A stretch of DNA of 64,000 nt. Source: Elusimicrobiota bacterium (GTDB lineage Bacteria; Elusimicrobiota; Elusimicrobia; JACQPE01). Positions 4,661-58,072 of this stretch are shown here, piece after piece (within the stretch, counting starts at the first letter, position 1; each line of letters opens with the position of its first letter). Below the pieces are notes generated by a model, which searched no databases, had not been told where the DNA came from, and worked only from the letters and a program-made list of their open reading frames with translations. Location: NCBI GenBank assembly GCA_016180815.1, contig JACPAN010000013.1, positions 54,939 through 118,938 of the forward strand, read 5' to 3'. The position numbers were made by a program, and so were the translations under genes.

Positions 4661-7060
4661 CTAGCGAGGAAAATTCTTATCGAGGGTTTTTTTGGCCAGC
4701 GCCTTGATTCGCGCGCTTGAGGACTCTTGGACAATGGCTTCAAGAGCGGGACGAACCGCCGGATTTCTCGACTCTTCAAGAATTTCCAGCCAGCGTGATT
4801 TCATTTCTTCGCTGAAGGAATTCGGATGAAGGACGAAATCTTTGACGAAACCGGCCCCTTCGGCCGAATTTTTAATCACTTCGTTGTTCATCAGCCGCCA
4901 AGAAATGCCGCCCACGATTTCGTTATTGGCATCCGAACTTTTGACGATGCGCTCAAGCTCGGGCAAAACGCCGGGATGGCGCACCATGCCGAAGGCCAAT
5001 AAAACGGTCTTTTTGAAAGGGTACCCTCGCCGGCCGTGCTGATCGAGCGCTGTTTTGAGCGCCTGGATGGACTCTTGGTCCGAAAAACCGGCTATGCCGG
5101 AGGAAGCTCCGGAAAGAATATCAAGCGGCAATTCTTGATCGCTTAAGAGTTCTCTAAGGTATTTGCGGCCGGCCTGATCCGTTGATTTGCCCAACAAAGC
5201 CAACGCGCGGGCCCGGACCAAGGTTTGCCCCTCAAGATCGGAGGAAGGAAGGCCGGCCGGGCCTTTTGCAAGCTCCAAGAGAACGGGGGTTAAATCATCG
5301 GGATAACGCGTCCATTTGCTGGTCAAAAGTTTGTCCAGAAGCCCGTGGCGGACATAAGGTGAAGGGTCAATTTTCAAGGCCAAAGAAAGCGTTTCTTTGG
5401 CCTTTGGCGTCAAATCCTCAAGTTTTTCGGCTTCGCGGGATACCCATGTTTTAGCCAGAGCAAACAAGGCTTGGATGCGGGCGATGGGATCAGGGTCGTG
5501 CAGCGCCTGCAGCGACCATTTTTCCTCGCTTGTCCTGGGTCTCGAAAGCTTGACCAAGGCAACCGAACCTGGGTTCCAGGTGATCCACTCCGGCTGCGCG
5601 AGTAAATCAAAATCAGCCGACCATTCTTTTCTATTGATTAAAATAATTTTCTTTTCATGGAATTCCGGAGGAGTCAAACGATGGAAAACCACCGGAATTC
5701 GAAAGTCAAAAACGGTCGTATCCTCGGCATGATTGGGGCGTTGTTTCATTCTCAACTTGATTTTTTTCTTCGAATCATGCCAGCGCTCCTCGACTTCGAG
5801 GATCGGATACCCGCGCGCCAACAGCCAGCTGTCCACGAACCCTTGAAGATCAAGTCCCGAGGCGTTCTCCATGGCCGCCATAAAATCTTTGTATGTGGCG
5901 TTGTTTAAAGCGAATTGGGTAAGGTATTCATTTAAACCTTTTCTAAACGCCTCGCGCCCAATATAGAAATCAAGCATCCTCAAGACCTGTTCGCCCTTGG
6001 TGTAATTCGTGCTGTCGAAGGCGTCGTCCGGAGTGGGCAGTTCCTTGGAAACAATCGGGTGGCTTCGCGGTCCGTCTTCCTGGCGGAAATAACTTTCCCA
6101 TGTGCTCAAGACGGTTTCAACCACCGCAAATTCGTTGCCGAAATAGTCCTCGGTGGCGACGGTCTCCATATAGGAAGCGAAGGCTTCATTGAGCCATAAA
6201 TCATCCCACCATTTCATGGTCACGTAATTGCCGAACCATTGATGAGCCAATTCGTGCGTGACGACCGAGGCGATGCGAAATTTTTGGATTTTGGCCGTCG
6301 GGTCCTCCAACGTCATGGCCGAATCCCTCATGGTGGTCAAGGTCGTATTCTCCATGCCGCCCCAAAGGAATCCCGGCAAGCCGACCATGGCGTAACGGTT
6401 CCAAGGGTATTTAATGCCGTAAAAATTTTCAAAAAAAGGCAGGGCTTTCTTCAAAACGTCCATCGCGAATTCGGCCCGCTCGCGTTTGGAAGGCGACGTG
6501 TAAATGCTCATGCCCGCGCCTTGGACGTCGGCGTTGAGTTCGCCGAATTTGCCGACGACGATATTGACCAGGTAAGTGCTGTGGGGTTTTTCCTGAACCC
6601 AGCGGACGCGCCGCAGCTTCCCGGCGTTTTTAATATCGACGATCTCATCGGCGACTTTGCGGCCGTTGGAAAAAACATCGTATTTCGGATCGACTTCAAC
6701 GGTCGTTTCCGTCGTCGCCTTATCGTAAGGCTCGTCGTTGCAGGGGAATAACTTGCGCGCCGCCACGGGCTCAAGATGCGTAAAAAACATCATCGGCCGC
6801 GTCGGCTCATCGGGATCGGCGACCTTGAAGAAACCTTGGTGTTGGACATCGGCTTGGCCGCCGTAGGCGATGGTGACGGCGATCTCTTTACCTGCCGGTT
6901 GAGAGGCGTTGAAATGGACGGCAGCGGCGTCCAGACGCATGGCAATGGCGTAATGTGAAACATCATACGGACGGTTTTTTGGGGTAAACAAGGCGCCTGA
7001 GGGCATGGCCATGGTCAGCAACGATAATAGAAAAGACAAAGCACGAAATTTTGCCCTCAT
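4661..7060 (-). CDS. M1-family zinc aminopeptidase (aminopeptidase N-like) with C-terminal HEAT/ARM-like repeats; signal peptide
   Basis: Contains GGMEN exopeptidase motif and HELAHQWFGNYVTMKWWDDLWLNEAFASY (HExxH-18x-E zinc site), both M1 hallmarks; signal-like N-terminus. Confidence 0.88.
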   Translation of the reverse strand: MRAKFRALSFLLSLLTMAMPSGALFTPKNRPYDVSHYAIAMRLDAAAVHFNASQPAGKEIAVTIAYGGQADVQHQGFFKVADPDEPTRPMMFFTHLEPVAARKLFPCNDEPYDKATTETTVEVDPKYDVFSNGRKVADEIVDIKNAGKLRRVRWVQEKPHSTYLVNIVVGKFGELNADVQGAGMSIYTSPSKRERAEFAMDVLKKALPFFENFYGIKYPWNRYAMVGLPGFLWGGMENTTLTTMRDSAMTLEDPTAKIQKFRIASVVTHELAHQWFGNYVTMKWWDDLWLNEAFASYMETVATEDYFGNEFAVVETVLSTWESYFRQEDGPRSHPIVSKELPTPDDAFDSTNYTKGEQVLRMLDFYIGREAFRKGLNEYLTQFALNNATYKDFMAAMENASGLDLQGFVDSWLLARGYPILEVEERWHDSKKKIKLRMKQRPNHAEDTTVFDFRIPVVFHRLTPPEFHEKKIILINRKEWSADFDLLAQPEWITWNPGSVALVKLSRPRTSEEKWSLQALHDPDPIARIQALFALAKTWVSREAEKLEDLTPKAKETLSLALKIDPSPYVRHGLLDKLLTSKWTRYPDDLTPVLLELAKGPAGLPSSDLEGQTLVRARALALLGKSTDQAGRKYLRELLSDQELPLDILSGASSGIAGFSDQESIQALKTALDQHGRRGYPFKKTVLLAFGMVRHPGVLPELERIVKSSDANNEIVGGISWRLMNNEVIKNSAEGAGFVKDFVLHPNSFSEEMKSRWLEILEESRNPAVRPALEAIVQESSSARIKALAKKTLDKNFPR

Positions 7061-7473: not shown

Positions 7474-7664
7474 AATTCTCCTGTTGATTAACTTTAGAAG
7501 CGGTCTCTGATAAGCATCATAGAATAATGAAGGACGGGGCGATAGACGCCGTTTAATGCCGTAAAAAATAAGGGGACTTAAAGACCCGTTGAAAATAGGA
7601 CCTAAGTCCCATGTTTTTTAGCCTAAAATGGGTCAAAATAAAGCATGTTTTGGTGGAGGTTACA

Positions 7665-8191: not shown

Positions 8192-8980
8192 TCATTTCGG
8201 AAAGAGCCAAATCGTTTCTCGGTATTCTTCGCCGATCTCATCAGCTTCATCTTCCATATCAACCGCTGAGTTTTTATTGAATCTTCTCCAAAACGCGTCA
8301 ACAACAAAGCTTTTATTGATTTGCATGGTATGACCGAATTCATGCGCGCGCAAATACTCATTTTGCATCCAGCCAGCCGAATCAAAATGAATGGTTGCGG
8401 CTGATGCGGTGTAGGCTGTATATGCGTTCCCCGTAGGTTTGCTGACGTTATATTCGCTGGGAACCGGGCTTGGCAATTGAACCAGATAGCCGCCTCCTAG
8501 GCCCAAGCGAACCCTGGCTCCGCTGCCCATCAGCGCCACGTGAACGCGATTGCTCTCAGGCGAGATCCATTGCCACAGAGGGTCAATCGCGACGCTCGTC
8601 CATGAGAGGAATAAATCAACGGATGTCGCCCAGGCATTCATCAGCAATTTGACCGGCGTGATTACAGAGGTCCAATAATCGCCGCGCAACGCGGCTTGAA
8701 CCCCGTCATAATAAATTTCTCCGGAACTGGCCGCCAAAACAACCGGCGCAGCTATGGCCAGCTTGCCCCAATTCCAGTAAGCATTAGCCAAACCCTTGGC
8801 GCCTTCAACAATCACAGGCCGCGCCGGATCAGAGACTTCTTTTTTCTTTGCATCGAAAGACAAGGCGCTGCTGGAATGCAACCCCATGAAATCGTCGCCG
8901 GCCAAAGCGCCTGAAGAAGCCTCCACCATCAACAAGGCCGCCGGAAACAAAATCGTTAATTTCTCAAGATGCCATTTCAT
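8192..8980 (-). CDS. hypothetical secreted protein with C-terminal HExxH motif (possible zincin-like peptidase)
   Basis: Signal-like N-terminus; LRAHEFGHTMQ near C-terminus. Confidence 0.5.
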   Translation of the reverse strand: MKWHLEKLTILFPAALLMVEASSGALAGDDFMGLHSSSALSFDAKKKEVSDPARPVIVEGAKGLANAYWNWGKLAIAAPVVLAASSGEIYYDGVQAALRGDYWTSVITPVKLLMNAWATSVDLFLSWTSVAIDPLWQWISPESNRVHVALMGSGARVRLGLGGGYLVQLPSPVPSEYNVSKPTGNAYTAYTASAATIHFDSAGWMQNEYLRAHEFGHTMQINKSFVVDAFWRRFNKNSAVDMEDEADEIGEEYRETIWLFPK

Positions 8981-9170
8981 GCCGCGCTGCCTACTTCTTA
9001 TTATTATTGTGCCGACTTTAAACTATTTTGTCGTGGGTCTTTGAGGCAATCTTACCTGGGACGAAAGACCGGTAAAGACCAGCTTTATCATAGGGGAGCA
9101 CTTGCTCTACTCCAGATTGCCTGATGGCGCGACAAACAAAAGCCCGTTAAACTCATAAAGAGGAGGCTTT

Positions 9171-12100
9171 TTGCTTAACAGTCACTGGCGCCTGCCGTTT
9201 TTGTTGATCTTGGCTGTTGCCTTGCCTGCGCCTATTATTCTGGCTAATGAGGAAAGGCAAAGCCAATACCCCGAAGATGATGGCGACGACGGCGACGGCC
9301 GGCAAAGCCAGTACCCTGAAGAACCGGAAGGCTTCGACTGCGCGGCTGATCCTTCATGCCGCGCCGCAGCTGAATCGAGGGGCGAAGACCCCGGCTCCGT
9401 CTCCCAACAATTTCTTGAGGATTATTTAGCCGGACGCATCCCCGGCCATAGCCCGCCTCCCGATAGAAGTTCCCCGGGAACTGCCCCTGGCCCAAGCGCG
9501 GACCCATCGGCTGCAGGGCCAAGCACGGAAAGGGGCAAGGCTCTCGATGAAGGCAGAAAAGCCATGGCTGAGAAAGCGGCTTCCGGCGATGTTAGAGGCG
9601 GACACAGCGGCTTAAGCGGAACATTCTCCGGCACCGGCCGTCCCCCGGGATTCGAGGAGGAATTGGGAGCTGCCGCTCATTTGGAGCATACCTTGGGCGT
9701 CGCCGCAGCGCCTAAAATTCCCGGCGCTCCTAAAATCGAACGGCCGGAACTTTATACGGGCGAGACAGCGCCGGCCGCGGCTCCCGCCGGTACCGTAGCG
9801 GCTCCACCCGAAGCCAAGCCCGCTCTCGCTGATCTCTACAAAGCGCCGACGGCGGAAGGTCTAAAGGCCGCCTTGCCTTTAAGTCCATCGGCTGATTTTA
9901 CGCGAGAACGGGACTCATTGACCGACAAATTGGCCGGCCGCGCTGTATCCGCCGTCGAAAAATTAGGCAATGTCGAACTGGCCGGCAAGCTTCATGCCCT
10001 TATGGCTATGACCGATTCCCATGAACGGGCGGTGCTCCTGCGAGAAACATTGGGCGAAGCCGACGCATTAATTGAAACGACTTATCGGGCCAAAATTTGC
10101 GAAACCTTCAAAGGCCTGCCTAAAAAAGAAAAAGCTTGTCTGTCCGGTGAATTATCCAAGGATGATCTGACAAAAGCGCAAAGCATTGCGGCTAAAGAAA
10201 ATCCCGAACTAGCTCTTTATATTAATCAAAAAAGGGCCTACCAAACATTCCTGGAGGGCGGCATGAAAGACGGCCGGCTGGCTCTTGGCGACCGGCTGGA
10301 GCCTTGGGAAATTGGCCTGAATCCAGCGTCAGGGGCGGACATACGCATCGAGAAAGACGCCACCGCTATTGCTGGAGTCGAATTTTTGGGCTTTAAGATT
10401 AAAACCAAAGATGGGACTGAAATTTTTGAGGGAACAAGGGCCGGAACAGACGGCCTCGAAAAAATCAAAATCATCCGCAGTCCGAGCGGCGAAGTAAAAA
10501 CCGCTGTTTTGATCCTGCGCACGACCAAAGACAAAAAAGGCAAAGAGACTGAAGAAATCGTCCGAAGTTCCGTTGAAATCAAGGACAAAGACGGCCGCCT
10601 GGTTGAAACGGAAAAATACGATAAAAGCAAAGGCTTGGTGGAAAAAGAATGGTTTAAAGAAGGCAAAAAAATTAAATCCCTGGAAGAAAGGACCGCTAAG
10701 GGCGTCAAAACCGTCACGCATAAGGAATTCAATCCCAAGTCAACGGCCAAGGACCCGCCGCCCAAGCTTGTGGTGGTTGCGGAATTTAAATTGGAAAAGG
10801 GGAAAGAAAAAGAAATTAAAAGAACGATCTATAAAGACGATACGGAAACTGTCATCATGCCTGACGGCTCGGCCACCGTAACCAACAAAAAATTTGATCC
10901 CAAGCGTCCCTGGAAATACATGAAGGGTAAAATTTCCGGCGAAGGCTTTTTACAAACTGAGATTGCTTTTGGCGAGGCGGGCGTAGATTGCGCTGTCACC
11001 GGATCAACCTCAAAATGCACGATTTTAAGAGGCAAAACCGTCATTGCCGACGGCAAGGCTGAATTCCGTCCTGACGTCATCATTTCTCCAGCGGGCACTT
11101 GCCGGGGGGTCATTGATGAAAAAGGCGCCTGCAATTCGCCCGAGGAATACCGGCCTAAGGAAGGCCCAGGTTTTCGGATGCATGGGCCGCATGTGGCCGA
11201 ATATTTTGAAGTAAGCCCCGGCGCCGATGGCAAAGAAATAAGGACCGGGCTGATGGCAAGTTTAATCTCGGTAAACACGCCCGGTGAATCCTTATCAATG
11301 GCCAACAGTGTCGGCAAATTAATGGGCTTCGATGAAGGCCGTATCAAGGCCATGTCCAATTGGATTTATGACGGCGCTAATCTGTGGCGCATACACAATC
11401 CGGCAAGCAGTCTGGCCAGGATCAAACTCAAGCCCGAAGAATCACCCTTTCGCCTTTGGATTGATCTTAAATCCGGCGAAGATATCAAAGACAAGTCCAT
11501 GATTCTCTATTTTGACAACGCAATGGGCAAAGACCGGCGCGTTGAAAGCGCTCGATTTTTGCTCGCTACCAAACGTTTTGAGTCAGAGGCCCCGGGCGCG
11601 GCTCTGGTGGTTTATGCGCCGCTACATCTAGACATCAATGACAAACCCGTTGGGCCGAAGCTTGATGAAGCAGGTCTTTTGAGATGGAGAGAATACCCCG
11701 CTGATCATTGGAACTGGAACTATGTCCGGTGTTGGGAAACGGAGACCAAGGGCGATCCGAGCTTGATGGAAAAATATGCGGATGCAGGCTCAATGACGCT
11801 GTCTCATGCCAAATTTTTGGTGGAACGAGAGGCCGGCAAAGGATGCCGCGGCAAAGAAATTTCGCGAACGCCCATCGGTAAGCCGGTAACCGAGAAAATT
11901 AAAGTCGAAAAGAGCATGGAGGAGTTCGTCAAACTCAGGAAATTGGAAATGATGAAGCGCAGAATGAAATCCCCGATGGAAGAAGGGCTTGAGTGGGCGA
12001 TGGATAAGAGCGCCGCCCTAGGCCGGGGCACTATCGAAGGATTTAAGGCGGGGGGCTTAGCCTGGGCTGCCATCGCTTCTGAAATGACCGGTGATAAAGA

Positions 12101-14654
12101 AACATCCGCCGCATACGGCCTGGGTGTTTATGCCTCTCTTTTGAGAACCGGCGCCGTGTATACGCCGGATGAGATTCTCGCCAAGGTCAAGGCGGATAAA
12201 AAAGTCTTGGTTTTTTTGGATGCCGAGGTGCGAGCCGGACGCAGCGACGCCTACAAAGCGCTTCGCGGGCCGGGGGCAACGCCTGAATCACTGATCGCCG
12301 CTAAAAAAATGGATAGCGCGCCGGTGACGGATGCCGAACGCTTGGCCCACCTGCGCAAATACGGCACCGCGGAGCATATCCTTGAACGAGCCGAGGAAAC
12401 CGGATCAGCGGCTCTTTATGCGGCCGGCGGAGCCGATGCTTTCATCACCACATTCGCCGAAGGCTGGCCCATGATGATGGGTTTCACCGGGCTTGAGGCC
12501 ATTGAGCGAGTCAAGCGCTTGGGCTCTTTGGCCAAAGCCGCCACCTTAACCAAGGCCGCCGCAGGCGCATATATGACATCGGGCCTCATCATCGGCGGGG
12601 TCAGTTATGTGGGCGAGTTCGCTGACGCAGCCGGCCGTGGCGATGCTGCGGACATGGTGAAAGCCGCGGCCACAGCCGCCGCTGATTTTGGTTTGGCCGA
12701 TGTGGTCATTCATAAAGTTTTCGGGGTTCATTCGAGTGAAAAAGCGACTATGGAAGCCTTGCGTAAAGAACGCCTGGCCCTTGAAAAAGACTCCACGCCG
12801 ACCGCGGAACTGATTTTTATCGAGATTCATGATTTAGTCGCGGGGAAACGCGATTTTGAAGGCATTATGAAAGCCTACGGCTATGAAGGCCCGGTCAGCC
12901 TGGACAACGGCAAAGGCATTTTGACGGTTCGCCCCGGCGATGTCGGGACCAAAGATTTAAAAGCCATGCTGATCGCCAAAGGCATCCGCGTTTATGATTC
13001 CTGGCCCAAGGAATGGAGTCCGATTTTTGATTCCAAATCCACTGACTCAAAAACAGAACCCATCGATACCGGAACCACCAAGATTGAAGATAAAGCTCCT
13101 CCCGGCCCAGGCGATGTTGCGATATCTGCATCAGAGACGGATATCTCTTTAACAATTAAATTTGAAAAATACGGCGACGCGCTGCGCATGAAATACATCA
13201 TCGGTGATTCTTCGGTTCATGATCGGACGCTACGTGTCAGAAAGGATACGCCGGCGGACATTGTTTCGGATCTAAAAAGAGTGGGCTATGCCATTGAAAT
13301 CATCGAGGCTCTCTCGCCGTCGGGTCCGACCGCCAAAAAAACTCCAAAACCAAGCTCCGTCGCTGATCCGGATAAAACAAGCCCGGCTGTGCCCAAAGCT
13401 ATGGCTGAAAAAACTTTAGATTCGGACAAAACCCTGGTTGACGCGCCGTCTGCGGATGCCGCATTTAAAGGCTTTCTCCCACCTGAAATTGCAGCCCGCC
13501 GTATCGAGGCTTTTGCCGAAGCCCGCAAACACATCTTTGGATCGGCAGGTTCAAGCGACGCTTTCCTTCGCGTCAGGCCCGATATTCCTTGGGATAAATA
13601 TGAAACGTTGAAAAAAGCCGGCTTCGACGTGATCGTGGAAGGGGAAATTACAGAGCGTTCAAGCGGAGATACTTCGGTTGGCCCGGCTCCCGGGCCGCCC
13701 GCCGCCAAGAAGCGCGTGATGCTTGAGCGCGTCAAAAGACCGGATGGAAGCTGGGAATATGTTGATGCCTCGGGTAAAAAATTTATCCTTGATGATCCCA
13801 GGCATGAAATCGAGGCAGGGACGCCCATCGCCGGTGGCATGAGCAGGGGCAGGGGCAGTTCCAGAGAGAAATTGCTGGTGGACTGGTCCAAGGACAAGGC
13901 TTTAAACGATTTATATACCGAAATTTTAAAGCCTTATGAAGAGCGCGGCCTTGACGGGGCTGAAAAAACAGCGCTTTTAGGCAAGGTCTATGAAAAAGTT
14001 CGCAAAACGATTCCGGCTAGTCTAACCGCGGAAGCTGAAATCAAAAGCAAGTTTAAAAACAAAACCGTTTTGATCGGCGAGGCTTGCGTCGGCTTTGGCG
14101 GCGTTTGCCGGCACCAAGGTATCGTCATAGCCGCCATTGTCGAACGATTAACCAAAGAGGGGTACCTCAACGGCGTTGCCAGTTATGTGCGGGGCCCCGG
14201 CCATGGATTTGCCGCCTATAGGTCTTCCGATGGGACCTGGATTATCCTGGACGGGGTGCAAAATTATTTCGGCCTGGCCAAAGATGCTTATTTTATCGGT
14301 GAAGACTCATCGGGACGAGGCCTTTTTCCTTATGCCGACTATCTGCCTAAAGAGACCAAACCAAGCGAACCTGCTGCCAAGACAAAACCAGCGCCCAGGC
14401 GGGATGCGATGATCATGGAGCCTGTCTTTTATCTCGATCCATTAACATCCCCCAAAGCAGACAAAACCATTAAGACCATCGAAACTAAATTTAAAGATGA
14501 CGTTATGATCCATACCGATAAAGAAACCGGGCTGGTCAGAATTTATGCCGAATCCGAAGTGGTGAAAAAAATTCACGAGCTTCTCAAGGGTGACGGAATC
14601 GAAATTTTATCGGAAGAAGCATATGGCAGAAAAAAAGTTCTACGCTCGCCGTAA
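9171..14654 (+). CDS. large secreted multidomain protein (1,827 aa) with C-terminal transglutaminase-like / papain-fold Cys-His-Asp signature
   Basis: TTG at 9171 four nt after AGGAGG; signal peptide; acidic RQSQYPE repeats; Pro/Ala/Gly-rich low-complexity region; Lys/Glu-rich repeat region; C-terminal GEACVGFGGVCRHQG...GPGHGFAAYRSSDGTWIILDG (C...H...D spacing as in transglutaminase-like cysteine peptidase cores). Confidence 0.75.
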   Translation: MLNSHWRLPFLLILAVALPAPIILANEERQSQYPEDDGDDGDGRQSQYPEEPEGFDCAADPSCRAAAESRGEDPGSVSQQFLEDYLAGRIPGHSPPPDRSSPGTAPGPSADPSAAGPSTERGKALDEGRKAMAEKAASGDVRGGHSGLSGTFSGTGRPPGFEEELGAAAHLEHTLGVAAAPKIPGAPKIERPELYTGETAPAAAPAGTVAAPPEAKPALADLYKAPTAEGLKAALPLSPSADFTRERDSLTDKLAGRAVSAVEKLGNVELAGKLHALMAMTDSHERAVLLRETLGEADALIETTYRAKICETFKGLPKKEKACLSGELSKDDLTKAQSIAAKENPELALYINQKRAYQTFLEGGMKDGRLALGDRLEPWEIGLNPASGADIRIEKDATAIAGVEFLGFKIKTKDGTEIFEGTRAGTDGLEKIKIIRSPSGEVKTAVLILRTTKDKKGKETEEIVRSSVEIKDKDGRLVETEKYDKSKGLVEKEWFKEGKKIKSLEERTAKGVKTVTHKEFNPKSTAKDPPPKLVVVAEFKLEKGKEKEIKRTIYKDDTETVIMPDGSATVTNKKFDPKRPWKYMKGKISGEGFLQTEIAFGEAGVDCAVTGSTSKCTILRGKTVIADGKAEFRPDVIISPAGTCRGVIDEKGACNSPEEYRPKEGPGFRMHGPHVAEYFEVSPGADGKEIRTGLMASLISVNTPGESLSMANSVGKLMGFDEGRIKAMSNWIYDGANLWRIHNPASSLARIKLKPEESPFRLWIDLKSGEDIKDKSMILYFDNAMGKDRRVESARFLLATKRFESEAPGAALVVYAPLHLDINDKPVGPKLDEAGLLRWREYPADHWNWNYVRCWETETKGDPSLMEKYADAGSMTLSHAKFLVEREAGKGCRGKEISRTPIGKPVTEKIKVEKSMEEFVKLRKLEMMKRRMKSPMEEGLEWAMDKSAALGRGTIEGFKAGGLAWAAIASEMTGDKETSAAYGLGVYASLLRTGAVYTPDEILAKVKADKKVLVFLDAEVRAGRSDAYKALRGPGATPESLIAAKKMDSAPVTDAERLAHLRKYGTAEHILERAEETGSAALYAAGGADAFITTFAEGWPMMMGFTGLEAIERVKRLGSLAKAATLTKAAAGAYMTSGLIIGGVSYVGEFADAAGRGDAADMVKAAATAAADFGLADVVIHKVFGVHSSEKATMEALRKERLALEKDSTPTAELIFIEIHDLVAGKRDFEGIMKAYGYEGPVSLDNGKGILTVRPGDVGTKDLKAMLIAKGIRVYDSWPKEWSPIFDSKSTDSKTEPIDTGTTKIEDKAPPGPGDVAISASETDISLTIKFEKYGDALRMKYIIGDSSVHDRTLRVRKDTPADIVSDLKRVGYAIEIIEALSPSGPTAKKTPKPSSVADPDKTSPAVPKAMAEKTLDSDKTLVDAPSADAAFKGFLPPEIAARRIEAFAEARKHIFGSAGSSDAFLRVRPDIPWDKYETLKKAGFDVIVEGEITERSSGDTSVGPAPGPPAAKKRVMLERVKRPDGSWEYVDASGKKFILDDPRHEIEAGTPIAGGMSRGRGSSREKLLVDWSKDKALNDLYTEILKPYEERGLDGAEKTALLGKVYEKVRKTIPASLTAEAEIKSKFKNKTVLIGEACVGFGGVCRHQGIVIAAIVERLTKEGYLNGVASYVRGPGHGFAAYRSSDGTWIILDGVQNYFGLAKDAYFIGEDSSGRGLFPYADYLPKETKPSEPAAKTKPAPRRDAMIMEPVFYLDPLTSPKADKTIKTIETKFKDDVMIHTDKETGLVRIYAESEVVKKIHELLKGDGIEILSEEAYGRKKVLRSP

Positions 14655-14667
14655 AAACGAAACCCTT

Positions 14668-14997
14668 CTAACGATCCCGGACTTTAATCTCCACGGAAGC
14701 GATGGCGTCAAGGGGAATGTAAACCTCGTAAAATTCCCTACCCGTCGGATTTTTAAGAACAACCGCATGAGAAGCGGCTTCTTTGACCTTGCCTGAATAC
14801 TCTTTGCCGCTCCGGAGATTGATATAAACGTGCAGATTCTTTTCAGCCGCCATCTTGAGAACGTCTTTTTGAGCATGCTCGGCTGAAACCGTCGGGGTTT
14901 CTTCCTTGGCGCCTTGAGCTTCAACGAAGCGTCCAAGGCCCAGCGCCGCGGCTGCGACCAATCCCAGAACAAGCCCTATTTTGATTGATTGTTTCAT
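14668..14997 (-). CDS. hypothetical small secreted protein
   Basis: Signal-like MKQSIKIGLVLGLVAAAALG; convergent with the large gene; start chosen at internal ATG of the longer ORF. Confidence 0.45.
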   Translation of the reverse strand: MKQSIKIGLVLGLVAAAALGLGRFVEAQGAKEETPTVSAEHAQKDVLKMAAEKNLHVYINLRSGKEYSGKVKEAASHAVVLKNPTGREFYEVYIPLDAIASVEIKVRDR

Positions 14998-15221
14998 TAG
15001 ATTTCCTCCCTCCTGATCGTTAATTGAGAACGCCCTATTTTCCATCATTTTTAACCCAAGATGTTATTGCTTAACCGAAAGGTGTTTATTTTCAATCCTT
15101 ATTGAACCGCCGGTTGATGGGTCTTTAGTTCGATCAATCTTAGACCTAAGACACGTGACGTTTTTTTGCGTTCCTGCCATACTAACTTTGAAGCCCCAAG
15201 AAGGTTAAGGAGGACAGTTCG

Positions 15222-15806
15222 ATGTTGTCAAGGATGAAAAAAACGCAAATCGGTTTAGCCGGCCTCATAATCGCCGGTTTATCAACCCAAACAGCGCTTT
15301 GGGCTGAATCAAGCCGTGAGGGTGAAGCCTGCGCCACGGTGAAACAGGAGCTTCGCAAAACACGGACGGCCACGGCCAAGATAGAGGGTTCTCTAGGCGC
15401 CTCAAGCAAGACGGCGGTCCGCCTAGGCTCGGCCTTCGGCGAAACCCGTGCCAAGGGGTGCAAGGGCACGGAATGTGTGCATGGAACCACCGATCCTCAT
15501 TTAGGAACTTTGCCCGTTCGCGTTGGAACGGCTGAGGCAGGAAAAAAGGCGGAATCCAAAAGCGTCAAGACAAAAACCGTCAAAACCGGTGTTTCTAAAA
15601 AGTCCGACAAAATGTCTTCAGGGGGCCGTCCGGCTGACCATGATTGCACTCATCGGCCCGAAGGATCGAGCCTGACCGGTTCCGCCGGGAAGACGGCAAC
15701 CGCTGCCGTAGAATCAGCCAAAAAACCGGCTGAACCAACAAATCCGGTTCCCTGGGGTAAAGGTTGTCGTATGATGGGCGGCGCCGTCACCTGCTGTTTT
15801 CCATGA
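15222..15806 (+). CDS. hypothetical secreted Cys-containing protein
   Basis: AAGGAGG RBS before ATG 15222; signal-like N-terminus; Lys/Thr-rich body; C-terminal CxxxxxxxxCC. Confidence 0.55.
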   Translation: MLSRMKKTQIGLAGLIIAGLSTQTALWAESSREGEACATVKQELRKTRTATAKIEGSLGASSKTAVRLGSAFGETRAKGCKGTECVHGTTDPHLGTLPVRVGTAEAGKKAESKSVKTKTVKTGVSKKSDKMSSGGRPADHDCTHRPEGSSLTGSAGKTATAAVESAKKPAEPTNPVPWGKGCRMMGGAVTCCFP

Positions 15807-16336
15807 AATTAAAGGTAATGAACCAAATGACTAAAACAAAAATGTGGATCGCGCCCGTTATTTTCTTGGCTTTTTCCCAGGCCATGGCTGACACAGACCC
15901 GTTAAAAACGTATGAGGCGACTACTAAGGTGATGGATGGGAAAGCGCCCAAGAAAGGCGTGGCAACTTCGGCTGTTAAGCCGGGGACTGCCAAGCCAAGC
16001 ACGGCCGCGCCCAAGACCCCGGCCAAAGCGGCGGCCTCAAAACCGGACCGGGCTTATTGCATCGCGCGCGTCAATGGCCTGGCTCTGCGCATCAGCGCTC
16101 TTGAAACAAAACGATTGGAATTCAAAGCTGCCAAAAAGGAGGGTGAGGCCATTGTGAAAAGTCTGCGCGAAGAGTACTGGGGACGTGCTTGGACAGAGGA
16201 AACACGTATCGCCGTTCATAAAGCCGAAGGAGCCAGGAAAGGAGCCGCAGATGCCCTTTGGTCAGCCGATCATGCTTTAGACGGGTTGCACAAAGAAATG
16301 GCCGCTCTCGATGAACGTTGCGGCTTATCAAAATAA
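15803..16336 (+). CDS. hypothetical secreted protein
   Basis: ATGA start/stop overlap with upstream gene; hydrophobic signal-like WIAPVIFLAFSQAMA; start ambiguous among ATGs at 15803/15818/15827. Confidence 0.5.
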   Translation: MKLKVMNQMTKTKMWIAPVIFLAFSQAMADTDPLKTYEATTKVMDGKAPKKGVATSAVKPGTAKPSTAAPKTPAKAAASKPDRAYCIARVNGLALRISALETKRLEFKAAKKEGEAIVKSLREEYWGRAWTEETRIAVHKAEGARKGAADALWSADHALDGLHKEMAALDERCGLSK

Positions 16337-16357
16337 CATCAGGAGGAAACCATAACA

Positions 16358-17002
16358 ATGTCGCAAACTAAAAAAATCGCGCTTACGCTGGCCGCTTTTG
16401 GCCTGCTGGCGGGCTATGCGTCGGCCCAGGAGACAGCCAAGCGGGGCGGCCCTCAAGAGCCGAAAAAGACTTGGGCCGACTCTTCGAAGACATTCGATGG
16501 GAATGCGCCCCGCGTCAAAAATGAGGATGGCGAAGAAGCTGAGCCTCTCCGCATTGATGAAAGCGGGCTTGATCCCAAACGAGGCGCAGACGACGGGGAT
16601 GAAAAATATATCTGGGTAGATGGGGAGAAAAAGGAGTCCGAAGGCGGACCCACGACCCGCCAGGGCTATGATGAGCGCACGAGAACCCGGGGACGAAGGG
16701 ACAGGGGATCAAAGAACAGGCAAGTCAAACCTGAACCCAATGAATGCGGGCAATACGACCGGAGCAATCAGCGCTGCCGCCAGGGACGCGGCAAGCGCGG
16801 CGGCGAGCAACAACCGCGTTATGTGCCGCCCAAGCCCAATGAAGACGGCCAGGGAACGCCTGATGAACCGAGTGAAAACGAGCCTTCCCGGCCCAATAAT
16901 CCCGAGGAACGGCGGCCCAGGCAGGAATCGCCCAATAAGCCCAAGGAGAAAATTAAAATCGACCCCGGTCAGAGAAAACCGGGCAGCGTGATCTCCATTT
17001 AA
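16358..17002 (+). CDS. hypothetical secreted, highly charged low-complexity protein
   Basis: AGGAGG RBS; signal-like MSQTKKIALTLAAFGLLAGYASA; Arg/Glu/Pro/Gly-rich low-complexity remainder. Confidence 0.55.
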   Translation: MSQTKKIALTLAAFGLLAGYASAQETAKRGGPQEPKKTWADSSKTFDGNAPRVKNEDGEEAEPLRIDESGLDPKRGADDGDEKYIWVDGEKKESEGGPTTRQGYDERTRTRGRRDRGSKNRQVKPEPNECGQYDRSNQRCRQGRGKRGGEQQPRYVPPKPNEDGQGTPDEPSENEPSRPNNPEERRPRQESPNKPKEKIKIDPGQRKPGSVISI

Positions 17003-17022
17003 GCACCCGATAAAAAGATTCA

Positions 17023-18759
17023 GTGACGACCAGCGGTTTCATTGATGCCGGTTTTGTCGCGATTGCCATGGCATCATTGGCGTTTGTCTTTTACTTTTCG
17101 CTGACAACCAACGCCTTTAAAACTGAGAACCGCCCGTTAAAACGCTACTTAATCACGGCGGCCGCCGCTTACATCAGCATATTCATCTGGGCGCCGGCCG
17201 GGCTTTTTATCCTGGGTCTGTTGATGGCGCTCCTGAGCGCCCTGGCGTCGGGGAGCGCCGATCCCTGCATCTTGCGTCTGCCGGTTAAACCGGCGCTCCT
17301 CGCGCTGAGCGCGGCGAATCTTTTTTTTGGCGTGTTGCTGGCACGCCGCTGGGCCGGAGCATTATCCGGCAGATTGATGAGTTTAAATCGGCGTTTGGCC
17401 AAAAAAAGCCTTGTCCTTGTTTTGTCGGTTGTCGCGTTATCTGTTGGGGGCGCTGCCTGGCGCGGGCATCCTTATGCTGACCACGGAGCAGGTTTGATGG
17501 CCAAAATGACCTGGCTTCTGGGCCATGGCGACGACGTACTTTATGCGACCATGTTTGCGGGCTGGGGCCATGTGTTCGGATGGGACCGGCAGGGTCTTGA
17601 AGATTTTCAACGCCTGGCCCGAGGGCAGGCGCCCCCCGGCGCCAAGGTTGCGCGCGCCGATGCCGCTAAAAAATACGTCGTGTTTTCCGACCTGCATCTC
17701 TTGGAGAAAGGGGCCAGGCACGATCATTTCAAAAACTGGAGCCGGGCCGGCCATGGCCCGGGCAATCATGAAATTTTTCACAGGGCGCTCGATTATTACC
17801 AAAAACACGAATTTTATCTCGTGGAAGCGGGCGACATTGAAGATTTATTCGTCAAAGCCCCCGGCTTCGGCAGGATGGCGAAGGAGCAAATTTTCGACGC
17901 TGTATTGGGACCGCTCGGCAACTATTTTGACGGCGCGGCGGAAAAAAAGGAACGCCTCCAAAAGCTCCGCGCCATAGCGCGCAACTACGCATCTCACTAC
18001 GAACATTTACGCGATTCTTTTTTTAAACACGGCCGCCTCATCAAACTCATCGGCAATCACGATGAGGCGCTGTTGGAACCGGAATTCTTGAATGTTCTGC
18101 GGGAAATATACGGAGGTCCCATAGAGGTTTATGAATACCTTGCCCTGGTCGATGATCCCGCTGTCTCCAACAGTCCGGTGCGCGCTGTGGTGGCGCACGG
18201 GCATCAATTCGATGTGATCTGCGCCATTGGCGCTGGGGATTTAATCGGCGAGGTTTACACGGAATCCCTGGCTTGGTTTGGAACCGGGGCGGACAGAGTG
18301 TGGCCGGGTTATTCAGCCCAAGAAGGCGGCTGGACCCAACGCATGCGCAGAGACTCGGGATTCGCCAATACCATTTCACGTTCTCCCAGTTTCTTTAAGG
18401 AAAAAAACGCGGTTGTGAAATGGAGACACATGAACGAAGACATGGCCGCAAAGGCGGTCACCGGCGCCGGCCCTGAAGCGCCCTACCTTGTCCTCGGCCA
18501 TACCCACGAGCCCAGGTTCCGGGCGGCGGACAAAAACGGCTCGTTGGTGGAAAAATACGTCAACACGGGGTCCGCCTCGCTCTATGAACAACTGGTTTGG
18601 GCCGTAGAAATCATCAACGGCCGGCCCGCCTTGGTCGCTTGGCGGACAAATGAACAAGGCGCATTGATCAAAACGCTCATGGAAGCAACGCCGGACGGGC
18701 GGCTTATCCCGGCGCAGGACAAGATATTGGCAGTTGCATCACCTGGAGGCAATCTTTGA
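17023..18759 (+). CDS. membrane-anchored metallophosphoesterase (calcineurin-like)
   Basis: Several N-terminal hydrophobic helices, then the ordered metallophosphoesterase motifs VFSDLHL, EAGDIEDL, LIGNHDE, VVAHGHQFD, LVLGHTHEP; GTG start inferred from ORF limit. Confidence 0.75.
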   Translation: MTTSGFIDAGFVAIAMASLAFVFYFSLTTNAFKTENRPLKRYLITAAAAYISIFIWAPAGLFILGLLMALLSALASGSADPCILRLPVKPALLALSAANLFFGVLLARRWAGALSGRLMSLNRRLAKKSLVLVLSVVALSVGGAAWRGHPYADHGAGLMAKMTWLLGHGDDVLYATMFAGWGHVFGWDRQGLEDFQRLARGQAPPGAKVARADAAKKYVVFSDLHLLEKGARHDHFKNWSRAGHGPGNHEIFHRALDYYQKHEFYLVEAGDIEDLFVKAPGFGRMAKEQIFDAVLGPLGNYFDGAAEKKERLQKLRAIARNYASHYEHLRDSFFKHGRLIKLIGNHDEALLEPEFLNVLREIYGGPIEVYEYLALVDDPAVSNSPVRAVVAHGHQFDVICAIGAGDLIGEVYTESLAWFGTGADRVWPGYSAQEGGWTQRMRRDSGFANTISRSPSFFKEKNAVVKWRHMNEDMAAKAVTGAGPEAPYLVLGHTHEPRFRAADKNGSLVEKYVNTGSASLYEQLVWAVEIINGRPALVAWRTNEQGALIKTLMEATPDGRLIPAQDKILAVASPGGNL

Positions 18760-53470: not shown

Positions 53471-54313
53471 ATGCTGAATAGAGCAATCATAAAATTCGCG
53501 GCGGCGGCGCTTATTCTGGCTGGCGGCCTGCCGGCAAAGGGCGAATCAACGGCCGTCGATCTGGGCAGTCTGCTCGCAAGCTCAGTCCGTAAAAATGAGG
53601 TTACGGGGCGATTCGAGTGGATCGGCTCCGATAAAACAATCAACGACATCAACAAACTGCTTTTTGACCCCGCCATCAGCGACGCGGATGCGGCGTACGG
53701 CGTTGAATTCCTGGCGCACCATTTAACCGATGAAGCGCTGCTCAATGAAATCACCGTTTTCAACGGCCTTATTTACTTGCGCCGGGCCGAGGCCTTCCAA
53801 TCGGGGGCTGTCCTTGCCCTGGCCGGTATCGCCAATTGTTCAAAAACCATCTCCTGCGCCAAAACGCGAACGCCGGAATCAATTGCCGCGGCGCTCAAGG
53901 CCATCCGCTCTCTTAAAATGATCTACATCCTGAATCCCCATGAAGAGGAAATAAACACGACACGCACCCTCATCAACGCGCGGACCGGGGCAGTGATTAC
54001 CGTGGATGAAAGCGACATTGAAAGGTTCCGGGTATACCCGGATGATTTTGCCGGCGGTCTCAGGGAAATAGGCGATGCGATTAATGACTGGGCTCTTGAG
54101 GCCGGGGACGCGATTTTCGGCAAGCCAACTTTTGAAAACGAAATTCGTGCGAAGATTAAAGGTGAAATGATGGGAATTTTAATCAGCGAACCCAATCCCC
54201 TGATCCGATCGGCCGCAACAGCATTTTTAAAGGACGAAGCCCCGGGCTATATCGATGCCGCCGCCAAAGTACGCCGCGATGTCGATGTCTGGGCCAAAAA
54301 ACATGGGCTATAA
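53471..54313 (+). CDS. hypothetical secreted protein
   Basis: GAGGGGG RBS before ATG 53471; signal-like MLNRAIIKFAAAALILAGG. Confidence 0.5.
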   Translation: MLNRAIIKFAAAALILAGGLPAKGESTAVDLGSLLASSVRKNEVTGRFEWIGSDKTINDINKLLFDPAISDADAAYGVEFLAHHLTDEALLNEITVFNGLIYLRRAEAFQSGAVLALAGIANCSKTISCAKTRTPESIAAALKAIRSLKMIYILNPHEEEINTTRTLINARTGAVITVDESDIERFRVYPDDFAGGLREIGDAINDWALEAGDAIFGKPTFENEIRAKIKGEMMGILISEPNPLIRSAATAFLKDEAPGYIDAAAKVRRDVDVWAKKHGL

Positions 54314-55166
54314 GACACCGTGGGGCGGATATTCCCCGCTTCGTCATTCCGGCGAAAGCCGGAATCCAGGCCCCCCAAGAGAGTCCAATAAACTGGATAC
54401 CGGCTTTCGCCGGTATGACGGAAAAAGAAAGGGTTCGGGGAATTTCTGGCCGTGGCGCAGGTTCAACATTTTGCTCATCCTGTTGGGTCTGTGCCTTGGT
54501 CTAAATGCCGCATCTCCTGATTTTGCGGAGATCGATCGCCTTTATCTTTACCGCCACTTGGGCTCAAACCTTGAAGAATCGATCAACCGGCTTCAAAGTA
54601 TGGATGCGGCATCACCCGGTAATCCGGACATTTTGTGGCGATGGGGACGCGGCCTGGTCAAACTAGGCGAACGCCAAACAAAGAAAAAAGGGAAGCTGAT
54701 ATTTTTCTCACTAGCTGAAGAAAAAATCAAACAAGCGTTGGCTTTAAAAGCCGACAACGCAGAGGCTCATTTTTGGTTCGGCGTTGTTCTGGGCCGCAAA
54801 GCCGAAACCATGGATTTTTTAAGCGCTTTGACTCTAGTGGGTCCCATGAAAAGAGAAATGATGACTGTTCTCAGCCTCAATCCCAGGCATGCAGGCGCCC
54901 ATTATTTTCTGGGACGCTTAATCCTTGAGTTGCCTGGCGGTAATAGAAAGAAAGCTCTCGAAGAACTTGAAGAGGCCGTGAAACTTGCCCCAAACTGCGC
55001 CGCGTGTTACCCGACCTTGGCCGAGGCTTATCTTGACGCCGGGGATGAGTATAAAGCCAGGCTCACGCTCCGGGCCGCCCTCGCCATCAAAAAACCCGAC
55101 GATCCGGCGGAATATGAAATTGATCTTGAAAATGCCCGTAAACTACTGGAAGACATTGGGGAATAA
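54255..55166 (+). CDS. TPR-like repeat protein; start uncertain (ORF 5' region contains a palindromic repeat pair)
   Basis: Body has helical repeat character; 5' limit is the ORF boundary and overlaps the upstream gene; true start may be the in-frame TTG near 54471 or the repeat may be translated. Confidence 0.45.
   Translation: MPPPKYAAMSMSGPKNMGYKTPWGGYSPLRHSGESRNPGPPRESNKLDTGFRRYDGKRKGSGNFWPWRRFNILLILLGLCLGLNAASPDFAEIDRLYLYRHLGSNLEESINRLQSMDAASPGNPDILWRWGRGLVKLGERQTKKKGKLIFFSLAEEKIKQALALKADNAEAHFWFGVVLGRKAETMDFLSALTLVGPMKREMMTVLSLNPRHAGAHYFLGRLILELPGGNRKKALEELEEAVKLAPNCAACYPTLAEAYLDAGDEYKARLTLRAALAIKKPDDPAEYEIDLENARKLLEDIGE
54343..54419. repeat. palindromic hairpin element, inverted pair, at the 5' end of the TPR-like gene
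   Basis: gtcattccggcgaaagccggaatccag ... ctggataccggctttcgccggtatgac. Confidence 0.8.
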
Positions 55167-55190
55167 AGCGCGGGGAGGAGCTATGGCGTT

Positions 55191-56207
55191 ATGGAAAAAT
55201 TGCTGATACCCTTTGAAAGCATGTTGGGGTCATTGTTTCTTATCGTCAGCCTGGGAGTCGCCCGGGCCGACATCTTTCGCGATCCGCCCACGGAGGCGGA
55301 TTTATACACCGACGAATATTTTAATGCTCTTGAAAAAGAGGTCGCAAGCTACCGCCTCTCGCCGCGCGCCTGCCCCGGCCCGGCTACGGAACCCGAGCGC
55401 CGGGCCATGGAAACCGAGTGGGCCGGGCTCGTTCCGGGCGTGAGTCTTCACTTACCCGCAACCACCAGCCGCGCCCAAATCGAAGGCGTCCGGCGCTTTG
55501 CGCGCGCGTATATTCTCCATGGCCTGCCCATTATGTCCGTTCGGTTCGCGGATGAGCCCTATATCGTCAAAACCTTTTCCAGCTTATCAACAAGCGCTGA
55601 CGACGATTATACCGGCGATGTGTTTTATCTGCCAAAACGGCTTTGCGACGCGAACAAGCTCGCCAAAACGCTTCGTTATTTTCAGTTGATGAGCATCAAC
55701 ACTACAACCGGCGCTCTCGGGAAAAACATCATGGCCCGTTATGGTAACCTCAAACTGACATTCCCCCGCGCCTTGATTGCTTTTGAATACAACGCCATGC
55801 CGGGGAAGGTAATCCTCAACAAAACCGACGTTATTTACTTCGCCTTAACCGGTTCTGCGGAGTCCGCAACGGGGGGAAAAGCAAAATCAGACTACCGCAG
55901 CCCAGCCTTAAGCGGGGCAAAAACGTCTACAGAGGACCGGGAACTGCTACGACATGGCCTTGATTCAATATTGGTGGATACGATGAACTTTAGTTGGGGC
56001 CGCCTTGACGGGCGCGTCCGAAACCCAGAGGCCGCGACTTTATTAACCGATGACGACTGCGCCTTTCCGGAATCTTTTTGTGAAATGTGGGCGGGTGAAG
56101 ACCGAGACTTTTGCCTGGAGAATTTTGCCGCCTTTGAGGAGAGGGTGGCGGATATCTGCAACGAAGGCTATGTCGAAACTTATGGCGGCCCGTCGCCGCA
56201 TCCTTAA
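55191..56207 (+). CDS. hypothetical secreted protein
   Basis: GGAGGAG RBS 10 nt upstream of ATG 55191; hydrophobic N-terminus. Confidence 0.55.
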   Translation: MEKLLIPFESMLGSLFLIVSLGVARADIFRDPPTEADLYTDEYFNALEKEVASYRLSPRACPGPATEPERRAMETEWAGLVPGVSLHLPATTSRAQIEGVRRFARAYILHGLPIMSVRFADEPYIVKTFSSLSTSADDDYTGDVFYLPKRLCDANKLAKTLRYFQLMSINTTTGALGKNIMARYGNLKLTFPRALIAFEYNAMPGKVILNKTDVIYFALTGSAESATGGKAKSDYRSPALSGAKTSTEDRELLRHGLDSILVDTMNFSWGRLDGRVRNPEAATLLTDDDCAFPESFCEMWAGEDRDFCLENFAAFEERVADICNEGYVETYGGPSPHP

Positions 56208-56213
56208 AAAATC

Positions 56214-57071
56214 ATGATCACTCCTTTTTCCGCCATGTTCGTTAAACTCAGGAAGGACGCTGGTTTTGAAAGCCCGTATGATTTCTACCATAAAAATGGC
56301 GGAGCCAAGGTGCTTCAACTATCCTTTGTGGGCTACCTTAAAATCGAAAAGGGGGAAATTTTGCCTCAGGCCAAACGGCTTTCTCTTTTGATTCATCTGC
56401 TCAGAATCAAGCCGGGCACGGAACAGGTGCGAGGGCTTCTGGCCGCTTACATAAAAACCATGGTCGGTGATCATGAAGTTTTTGATTCTCTTTTTCAGCC
56501 GATGATGGAAGGCAGGCGGCTGGAGGGTTCCCTCTCCGCTCTTTCCATTAAAGCCGCCAAGGTGCTCTCCAAAGAGCGGGTGCAGCATTTGACTCCGGAC
56601 CAGTTTCATGGCGTTATCCAAGACCCGGCCGGCTACTGGTGTCTGGAAGTGTTGACCAATGACGAGGGGCCATGGACGATTGAGACTTTGGCCAAACTGC
56701 TTAAAATGAGCAAAAGCGAAATCAACGCGGCCATGAACAATCTTAAAAAACACAAACTCGCCAAAGAAAAAAAGAAAGGGGAATGGATCAGCGCTTTCGG
56801 CTGCCGTCATTTTACGGCTCCGGCCTCCCTCACTTATGGCGAAGCGGAACGCGAATGCCTGAAAAAATGCTGGGAAACAGCGCGAAAAAACGGGATCAAT
56901 CTGATGAACCGGGCCATCGCCATCCGCGCCAGCGAAGCGGATATCCGCAACTATTTGGAACATATCCGGGAGGCGCTGGACACGGCTGCGGTTTACGCCA
57001 GCTTCGACCGCACCCCTGATTCCCAAATGTTTTTAATCCACACCCAGGCGCATAAGCTTTTTCCGCTTTAG
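56214..57071 (+). CDS. hypothetical protein, possible N-terminal HTH regulator
   Basis: Protein-like composition versus junk-like antisense ORF 56319..57026; N-terminal segment weakly XRE-HTH-like. Confidence 0.5.
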   Translation: MITPFSAMFVKLRKDAGFESPYDFYHKNGGAKVLQLSFVGYLKIEKGEILPQAKRLSLLIHLLRIKPGTEQVRGLLAAYIKTMVGDHEVFDSLFQPMMEGRRLEGSLSALSIKAAKVLSKERVQHLTPDQFHGVIQDPAGYWCLEVLTNDEGPWTIETLAKLLKMSKSEINAAMNNLKKHKLAKEKKKGEWISAFGCRHFTAPASLTYGEAERECLKKCWETARKNGINLMNRAIAIRASEADIRNYLEHIREALDTAAVYASFDRTPDSQMFLIHTQAHKLFPL

Positions 57072-58072
57072 GGATACCCCGGCGGGCAAGAACGGGCAAA
57101 ACGAAGGGATTGGCGGAAATCGCTCATGGGGCTGGCGCCGCCTTCCATTTCATAAAGCGCTCTTTTTAAGTAATGCCGGGCTCGTTGGCAATTATCAGCA
57201 TCCCCGGGCAAGGGGCGGGAAGCATAAATAAAAGAACCGCGATTGCACTCAACAACGCCGTCTTCATCCGTGCAATAAAGCGCCGACCATTCGATAAAGG
57301 ACTCCCATGATCCCGATATCAACCAATCTATTTTTTGACAGGAGCCTTCTTTGATGATGCTCGCCAATCTGCTCAGGCCTAAATCCATGGAACCGCAATT
57401 TAAGCCTCCCGTCAACCCGGCCTGCCTGGCAAAATGAAAACCCAAAACCGTGGCCATGGCTTCCTCGGTGCTGGTATAGGTATTTTCTCCCAAAATTCGA
57501 TGAACATAGGCATGAAAATATTCATGAGTCAAAGTTTCCGCAGCCAATTGCCGGGCCATGATTTGTTCCTCTCCCATACGCAAGGTGCAAGACCAAAGCG
57601 CATTCATCAAAATATCCCCTTCCGAAGGCCGGAAACGGCCCATGGGAACAGGACCGTTAAAATCATGGATTCGGACGGAAATGGGACCTACGGCAGCTTT
57701 CATGCTCCGAAAGTCGGCGCTGCGTCCGGAAATGCGTTCGGCCAGCCCCCGAATGGTTTCCTGAGCAGCTTCCATGCGATAGGGGCAAGGCCGTTGGGTT
57801 GCCAAGATATGTTCTAGAACAAGACAATTCATTGATTCGACGTCATCAGCGGATACTCCCGGCAAAAGATCTCTTAAGGCGGATTCCTCAGGTAAATCTG
57901 CGCTTGAAACCAAAACTGACGATTCCTCCAAAAAACCTTCGGCCCGGCAGGCATCAATTCTGCCGCCAACGGCATCAGCCAGCTCGCCGGCATGAATTCC
58001 TGCCGTCAGCATCAGGAGAAAAACCGTTCCGACCATCCCTATAAATGTACCAGAGGAAAGGAGGGCCGGCAA
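57068..58072 (-). CDS. hypothetical secreted protein with HExxH motif
   Basis: Signal-like N-terminus MPALLSSGTFIGMVGTVFLLMLTAGIHA; LTHEYFHAYVHR motif. Confidence 0.55.
   Translation of the reverse strand: MPALLSSGTFIGMVGTVFLLMLTAGIHAGELADAVGGRIDACRAEGFLEESSVLVSSADLPEESALRDLLPGVSADDVESMNCLVLEHILATQRPCPYRMEAAQETIRGLAERISGRSADFRSMKAAVGPISVRIHDFNGPVPMGRFRPSEGDILMNALWSCTLRMGEEQIMARQLAAETLTHEYFHAYVHRILGENTYTSTEEAMATVLGFHFARQAGLTGGLNCGSMDLGLSRLASIIKEGSCQKIDWLISGSWESFIEWSALYCTDEDGVVECNRGSFIYASRPLPGDADNCQRARHYLKRALYEMEGGASPMSDFRQSLRFARSCPPGYP

Follow-up and report, generated by a model that had tools for sequence, protein, structure and literature searches.

Five exported HExxH proteins in an Elusimicrobia chromosomal segment: an M48 metallopeptidase pair and three putative zincins

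Does a concentration of HExxH motifs among exported proteins mark a set of zinc hydrolases that act together outside the cell? This question is raised by a 64,000-nucleotide stretch of DNA (the window) from an Elusimicrobiota bacterium (GenBank assembly GCA_016180815.1, contig JACPAN010000013.1, positions 54,939 to 118,938 of the forward strand), which is a chromosomal segment of a metagenome-assembled genome (MAG) of Elusimicrobia packed with lineage-specific exported proteins. A preliminary description of the sequence had listed five open reading frames (ORFs), here called P1 to P5, that combine a signal peptide with an HExxH motif, and had proposed that they degrade external protein or cell-wall substrates. 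All five ORFs were present as described, each with one HExxH and a signal-like N-terminus (aa, amino acids; nt, nucleotides):

8192..8980, minus strand: P1, exported 262-aa orphan; HEFGH at aa 213 (nt 8330-8344), EDEAD at aa 243-247 (nt 8240-8254)
39746..41074, minus strand: P2, exported 442-aa protein; HEYAH at aa 400 (nt 39863-39877), F-D-G (FDG) motif after the signal peptide
48597..49340, plus strand: P3, 247 aa from the 48597 start; HELAH at aa 146 (nt 49032-49046), EREAD at aa 168-172 (nt 49098-49112)
52752..53468, plus strand: P4; HELAH at aa 137 (nt 53160-53174), EKEAD at aa 162-166 (nt 53235-53249), HPLEER near the C-terminus
57068..58072, minus strand: P5, exported Cys-rich orphan; HEYFH at aa 183 (nt 57512-57526), Glu-Glu 16-17 residues after it

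These five proteins are a heterogeneous set, made up of four independent HExxH lineages, and are not one gene cluster or system. The signal peptides were assigned by inspection and Kyte-Doolittle hydropathy, from which we infer export; in all five N-termini a charged n-region leads into a hydrophobic core, and small residues stand where cleavage would be plausible. By hydropathy, no other segment of P1, P4 or P5 is clearly hydrophobic; P2 has a second, borderline one at aa 150-168, and the signal core of P3 is weaker. A conserved Cys pair in P3 and P4 and ten Cys in P5 are also consistent with export. Membrane zincins of the HtpX/BlaR1 type were considered for P1 and P2 and were rejected, as no clear transmembrane segment follows the N-terminal signal in either protein, the segment at aa 150-168 of P2 being borderline.

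The motifs exceed chance, as the preliminary description had implied in speaking of a concentration. From composition, 0.53 HExxH motifs would be expected in all 20,366 encoded residues of the window and ~0.16 among its 28 signal-bearing ORFs (7,063 aa), where three were seen besides the M48 pair described below. Per-protein shuffling of these 28 ORFs never gave four or more motif-bearing proteins (0 of 20,000 shuffles; observed, five), and the five count as four independent cases, the paralogues P3 and P4 being taken as one. For all five ORFs the annotated frame was the best of six under a codon model trained on Pfam-supported genes. The residues leading into the first His (LRAHE in P1, LLAHE in P2, IIAHE in P3, HIAHE in P4 and TLTHE in P5) are hydrophobic residues plus a small residue, which gives all five motifs a typical zincin context. 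Elsewhere in the window, HEIFH occurs in the protein encoded at 17023-18759 (plus strand), which matches Metallophos weakly and has hydrophobic segments at its N-terminus; here the motif lies within 'GNHE' and belongs to a metallophosphoesterase signature, so this ORF was ruled out as a zincin. Two further motifs, HENNH and HERQH, are found in a 6071-aa ORF and look like chance occurrences.

P3 and P4 are 44% identical over 257 residues (BLASTP, E 2e-56), and both score above the gathering cut-off of the Pfam M48 family (PF01435; 42.4 bits for P3 and 27.2 bits for P4 against 20.3). In GenBank, P3 is called as 258 aa and named 'M48 family metalloprotease'. Among PDB sequences, P3 aligned with an M48 protein of Geobacter (3C37) and with BepA across the helices that hold HExxH and E-x-E-A-D, and its H146, H150 and E168 correspond to H136, H140 and E201 (chain numbering) of BepA, the zinc ligands of that enzyme (PMC7950410). 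An alignment of P3 and P4 with 21 distant M48 proteins (23 sequences in total) was invariant at A145, H146, E147, L148, A149, H150, H155, E168, A171, D172 and A182 (P3 numbering). The E-A-D segment that had been likened to M48 peptidases in both paralogues is therefore indeed the third-ligand motif of the family, since E168 of P3 aligns to the BepA ligand E201 and these columns do not vary among the 23 sequences. Two Cys are conserved between P3 and P4. Judged by sequence, P3 and P4 are genuine M48-family zinc metallopeptidases.

Profile comparisons further indicate that P3 and P4 are M48 members and not orthologues of any named enzyme. Against the NCBIfam equivalogs for BepA, HtpX and LoiP their best score was 24.5 bits, with cut-offs of 274-570. 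Their similarity to other proteins is restricted to the core, ~25-50% of the length, with E values of about 1e-6 to 1e-4 and none better than 2e-6; among 5.8 billion clustered proteins neither had a close relative except the other, and no relatives were found in viral contigs. Like the M48 enzymes with a signal peptide (E. coli BepA, YcaL and LoiP; Geobacter sulfurreducens, PDB 3C37), they have HExxH in the active-site helix, a His five residues on, the Glu of E-x-x-A-D, then A-G, and an N-terminal signal, with a mature length of ~200 aa similar to 3C37. Unlike the named signal-bearing enzymes, they lack both a TPR domain and a lipobox, and the segment from HExxH to the Glu is 17-20 residues long in P3 and P4 against 45-70 in most relatives, several matches sharing the short form.

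The same 40-residue HExxH...E core also gave weak matches to Lit (family U49; E 1e-5, NCBIfam and PADLOC) and to M78, the ImmA/IrrE family (E 0.002), and the two genes flank an AbiEi/AbiEii pair. Lit and ImmA are cytoplasmic, whereas P3 and P4 carry signal peptides and conserved Cys pairs, and the Lit and M78 scores are below those for M48. Their likeness to Lit and M78 is a core-fold resemblance on a shared gluzincin scaffold and not membership. A role for P3 and P4 as a defence system, raised by the Lit match and the adjoining AbiE genes, was rejected because of the signal peptides and the better M48 scores.

We propose that P3 and P4 are small, soluble, Sec-exported M48 enzymes whose catalytic set is complete, HELAH providing two His ligands and the catalytic Glu, and E-x-E-A-D the Glu that is the third zinc ligand. 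Most likely they would act as zinc-dependent endoproteases within the periplasm or the cell envelope, by analogy with BepA, a signal-bearing periplasmic envelope protease that serves quality control and not digestion (PMC7950410). Each is encoded within a same-strand array whose other small genes specify exported or membrane orphans, so these neighbours may be its substrates.

The last 60 residues of P1 read HEFGH-x25-EDEAD-EIG, an arrangement whose EDEAD had gone unmentioned in the preliminary description. When P1 was compared with the P3/P4 pair by hhalign, HEFGH and EDEAD fell in register (E 0.002, probability 13%), and against a wider M48 profile the ExEAD segment alone was aligned (5% probability); by our rough estimate from residue frequencies, the chance of an ExxAD in the last 45 residues of P1 is ~1%. 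P1 had no match in Pfam, NCBIfam or PDB sequences, where searches with core fragments and with the full length against the PDB gave noise, and it retrieved the query itself only among the 5.8 billion clustered proteins and nothing from viral contigs. On the most economical reading, P1 is probably a divergent M48-like gluzincin, with a C-terminal 60 residues that mimic the M48/gluzincin core.

P2 belongs to a small family. Four relatives emerged when 1.84 billion representatives were searched exhaustively with HMMER, two from another Elusimicrobia MAG (GCA_016207685.1) and two metagenome proteins; a scan of metagenome contigs for the family found nothing. Three of the four relative clusters keep the motif (HEYTH, HERTH and HELTH). 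In P2 itself 38 residues separate HEYAH from the C-terminus, and the candidates for the third ligand are E427, D428, H431, H432 and E435, all within a low-confidence tail of the structure model. The model had no Foldseek match in the PDB; taken as it stands, it suggests a helical body with a minimal C-terminal zincin-like module in which a small sheet precedes the HExxH helix. Minimal zincins and minigluzincins (proabylysin, 4JIU; selecase, 4QHF; the Acel_2062 mini-zincin, 3E11) are among the closest known systems. The genomic contexts of the relatives are not conserved, and one of them faces an S8 peptidase gene. The relative with HEYTH is followed, with a 23-nt overlap, by an SLT lytic transglycosylase/LysM gene (contig L085, 511-3286; GCA_016207685.1, JACQPE010000177.1), an arrangement that points to co-transcription and, possibly, to a link between the family and the cell wall. 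We regard P2 as a probable zinc hydrolase; its family is very small and has so far been named in no genomes other than those of Elusimicrobia.

For P5, GenBank uses the start at 58036, which gives 322 aa with 10 Cys and places HEYFH at aa 171. Its segment TEEAMATVLGFHFARQAG can be aligned to the M48 pattern E-x-x-A...A-G, without statistical support, and HExxH and the Glu-Glu fall on two consecutive helices predicted at low confidence by AlphaFold2 (AF2). No match was found in Pfam, NCBIfam or PDB sequences, the query itself was the only hit among the 5.8 billion clustered proteins, and metagenome and viral contigs held no relatives. The motif makes P5 possibly a gluzincin of the form HExxH-x16-EE.

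In a diderm bacterium, a Sec-type signal is evidence of export as far as the periplasm only. The extracellular location that had been proposed for the five proteins is therefore not borne out, as their signals point to periplasmic export and BepA, a signal-bearing relative, is periplasmic (PMC7950410). Nor is a joint role borne out, since the five genes stand in five transcriptional contexts across 50 kb. P1 is divergent from a 1827-aa ORF, and P2 comes downstream of an FDG-bearing orphan of 699 aa. P3 and P4 each belong to a compact same-strand array of genes for small orphans, exported or membrane-bound, and the AbiEi/AbiEii pair separates the two arrays. P5 lies behind catabolic genes, starting 19-55 nt downstream of same-strand genes for proline dehydrogenase, a threonine dehydrogenase-like (tdh-like) protein and glycine C-acetyltransferase (kbl; 499 bits against a cut-off of 460). 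As to the external protein or cell-wall substrates that had been proposed, only hints were seen, and they point in different ways, to the SLT/LysM gene beside the P2 relative and to the proline/threonine catabolic genes beside P5. The neighbours concerned, together with two signal-bearing peptidases of other families, are:

4661..7060, minus strand: M1-family aminopeptidase with HELAH and a signal-like N-terminus (PF01433, E 1e-63, 215 bits; PF17900, E 1e-18)
9171-14654, plus strand: signal-bearing 1827-aa ORF with no family match
20104..21195, plus strand: M19-family dipeptidase with a signal-like N-terminus (PF01244, E 1.5e-40, 139.8 bits); not an HExxH enzyme
21331-39546, plus strand: 6071-aa ORF with an N-terminal hydrophobic segment, PPDK_N (E 2e-68) and a PEP-utilizers mobile domain at ~aa 3530-4020
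44299-49824: first same-strand array of tightly packed small exported or membrane orphans
49895-50440: AbiEi-like protein (DUF6922/HTH) of a toxin-antitoxin pair, between the two arrays
50447-51100: AbiEii nucleotidyltransferase of the same pair
51244-57071: second same-strand array of the same kind

The M1 and M19 enzymes, which had been named as additional secreted peptidases, both exceed the Pfam gathering threshold and have signal-like N-termini; NCBIfam pepN models match the M1 ORF below their equivalog cut-offs. As for the claim that the five are zinc hydrolases, it stands for P3 and P4, which belong to M48 by Pfam scores above the cut-off; P1, P2 and P5 match no protease family. The latter three are probably zinc peptidases as well, with a predicted zincin fold and activity, and would probably use the same zinc chemistry as P3 and P4. 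The reading that we favour, and consider moderately probable as a whole, is that of an M48 pair accompanied by P1, P2 and P5 as separate, predicted zincin-type lineages in an orphan-rich exported region. The apparent concentration is best understood as a side effect of the make-up of the region, in which lineage-specific exported proteins predominate and a sizeable fraction of them are metallopeptidase-like.

Several results weigh against this reading. Relatedness of P1, P2, P5 and P3/P4 to one another beyond the motif helix found no support from BLASTP, shuffled Smith-Waterman or hhalign: the pairwise Smith-Waterman z-scores were all <1.5 and the hhalign probabilities were low for P1 (13%) and P5 (<1%). 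P1, P2 and P5 had no protease-family match in Pfam, NCBIfam, PHROGs or PDB sequences; against the PDB, core fragments of all three gave noise, as did their full sequences. One P2 paralogue has GGFTH in place of HExxH, which leaves only the second His invariant across the family and means that at least one member can do without the motif. The predicted local distance difference test score (pLDDT) of the P2 model is <50 from residue 412 onward, no third zinc ligand was identified in P2, and the single-sequence AF2 model of P5 is uninformative (pLDDT 41). Even within the M48 pair, the strict plug pattern H-E-x-x-H-x(30,140)-H-P-x(4)-R is absent: P4 has HPLEER (HPx3R) and P3 has YPER, with no His, whereas the HPx4R active-site plug is said to be conserved throughout the family (PMC7950410).

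Most of these points would suit an explanation in which only the M48 pair and the M1 enzyme are real zinc peptidases and the HExxH of P1, P2 and/or P5 is non-catalytic, arising by chance, serving as another metal site or persisting as the remnant of a pseudo-enzyme. The missing family and structure matches, the His-Glu lost in one P2 relative, the low-confidence models of P2 and P5 and the orphan status of P1 and P5 all speak for it. Chance, however, would supply far fewer motifs among the exported ORFs than were seen, the sequence context of the motif is typical of zincins in all three proteins, the ExEAD of P1 is in register with M48, and HE.TH is kept in three of four P2 relatives; we regard this explanation as rather unlikely. 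If the three proteins are instead active, their task could be nutritional, with P1, P2 and P5 as exported endopeptidases which, together with M1 and M19, supply amino acids to the adjoining catabolic genes. Such a role narrows the proposal of the preliminary description to protein substrates. The position of P5 directly after those genes and the signal-like N-termini of both M1 and M19 fit such a role. This is guilt by association, though, and the signal-bearing M48 relative BepA serves envelope quality control (PMC7950410); P1 to P4 have no metabolic neighbours, and secretion across the outer membrane is hypothetical, which makes a nutritional set unlikely in our view.

It is less likely still that the proteases form an attack or host-interaction arsenal with the 6071-aa and 1827-aa giants and ~25 exported orphans, and not a housekeeping or nutritional set. 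In favour of an arsenal, about 30 of the 45 ORFs are signal-like and the majority of these have no family, and giant proteins with peptidase and hydrolase domains have been discussed for the neighbouring phylum Omnitrophota and tied to predation there (bioRxiv 10.1101/2023.11.21.568195); the overlap of one P2 relative with a cell-wall lytic SLT/LysM gene points the same way. Yet no secretion system, toxin/immunity pair or cell-wall hydrolase was found within the window, the only clear domains of the 6071-aa giant are PPDK_N and PEP-utilizers, and the P2-relative contexts vary.

The firm part of the favoured reading, namely two divergent M48 proteases with an M1 and an M19 enzyme, is ordinary, and P3 already carries its M48 annotation in GenBank. 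Should P1, P2 and P5 be active, they would represent up to three new, small families of zincins in a phylum of which little is known, and screens that combine motif and signal would reveal peptidases overlooked by profile libraries. The wider region, with its exported orphans, two very large proteins and recurrent FDG motif, may tell more about the biology of the lineage than the HExxH set.

The FDG motif, with the variants YDG, MDG and WDG, was observed in exported orphans that are otherwise unrelated, 15-45 residues past the signal peptide. The ORFs with a motif of this type are:

15764-16336
16358-17002
39746-41074 (P2)
41310-43409
44996-45544
46668-47204
47232-47810
47768-48430
49264-49824
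51244-51825

P2 carries FDG itself, as do at least six of the exported orphans around it, and eight of the nine occurrences of FDG in the 20,366 encoded residues fall within the first 90 aa of a protein, against 0.59 expected. The P2 relatives from the other Elusimicrobia MAG keep the FDG region (TFDGSR, SFEGT). FDG may serve this lineage as a signal for sorting or processing, and is potentially a more interesting lead than the HExxH set. A bolder proposal, that P1, P2 and P5 are founders of three undescribed, lineage-restricted zincin families and that FDG is a lineage-specific signal for sorting or pro-peptide processing, possibly cut by the M48 paralogues whose genes share those arrays, strikes us as improbable when all its parts are taken together.

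The 6071-aa ORF has, in addition to the domains given above, a weak ResIII/helicase-like match at aa 645-730. Paralogue pairs occur in the arrays, 44996/45534 (a signal peptide and two C-terminal hydrophobic segments) and 46668/47768; on inspection, the signal-plus-C-terminal-hydrophobic layout of 49264-49824 resembles the former and the C-terminus of 47232-47810 the latter. In the second array, one gene encodes a TPR protein (54255-55166) and the last is of the DUF4423/HTH type (56214-57071). A non-coding direct repeat was also found in this part of the window:

48441-48561: first copy of the 121-nt repeat, just upstream of P3
51095-51215: second copy, just after AbiEii and upstream of 51244

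The two copies are 89% identical and so more alike than the coding paralogues (74-76%). Rfam gave no match to the repeat, and its folding energy was not out of the ordinary; an AGTTAAC...GTTAACT palindrome is present in it, as is a CGGGCC-TTTG-GGCCCG hairpin with a T-run.

The window has an even GC content of 51-56%, and its recognised housekeeping genes (recX, purH, lysA, the proline dehydrogenase gene, the threonine-dehydrogenase-like gene and kbl) frame a large block of ORFs: ~30 of 45 have a signal-like hydrophobic N-terminus, the majority of these without a Pfam family match. P1 and P5 are identical to the GenBank MAG hypothetical proteins HYT79_06980 and HYT79_07135, respectively (both Elusimicrobia bacterium, on a contig of 180 kb). 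A scan of a genome collection for syntenic relatives with the M1 aminopeptidase that neighbours P1 gave only matches of <=37% identity from unrelated phyla. P1 was present and identical on three metagenome contigs, which are short assemblies of runs SRR12113385, SRR12113425 and SRR12113431. On metagenome contig L002, the M1 aminopeptidase (3959-5461) is only ~90% identical to that at 4661-7060 of the window and has extra residues, while the adjoining P1 and the ORF at 7611-8162 are both 100% identical to the window, a pattern suggestive of variation between strains or of recombination at the M1 gene.

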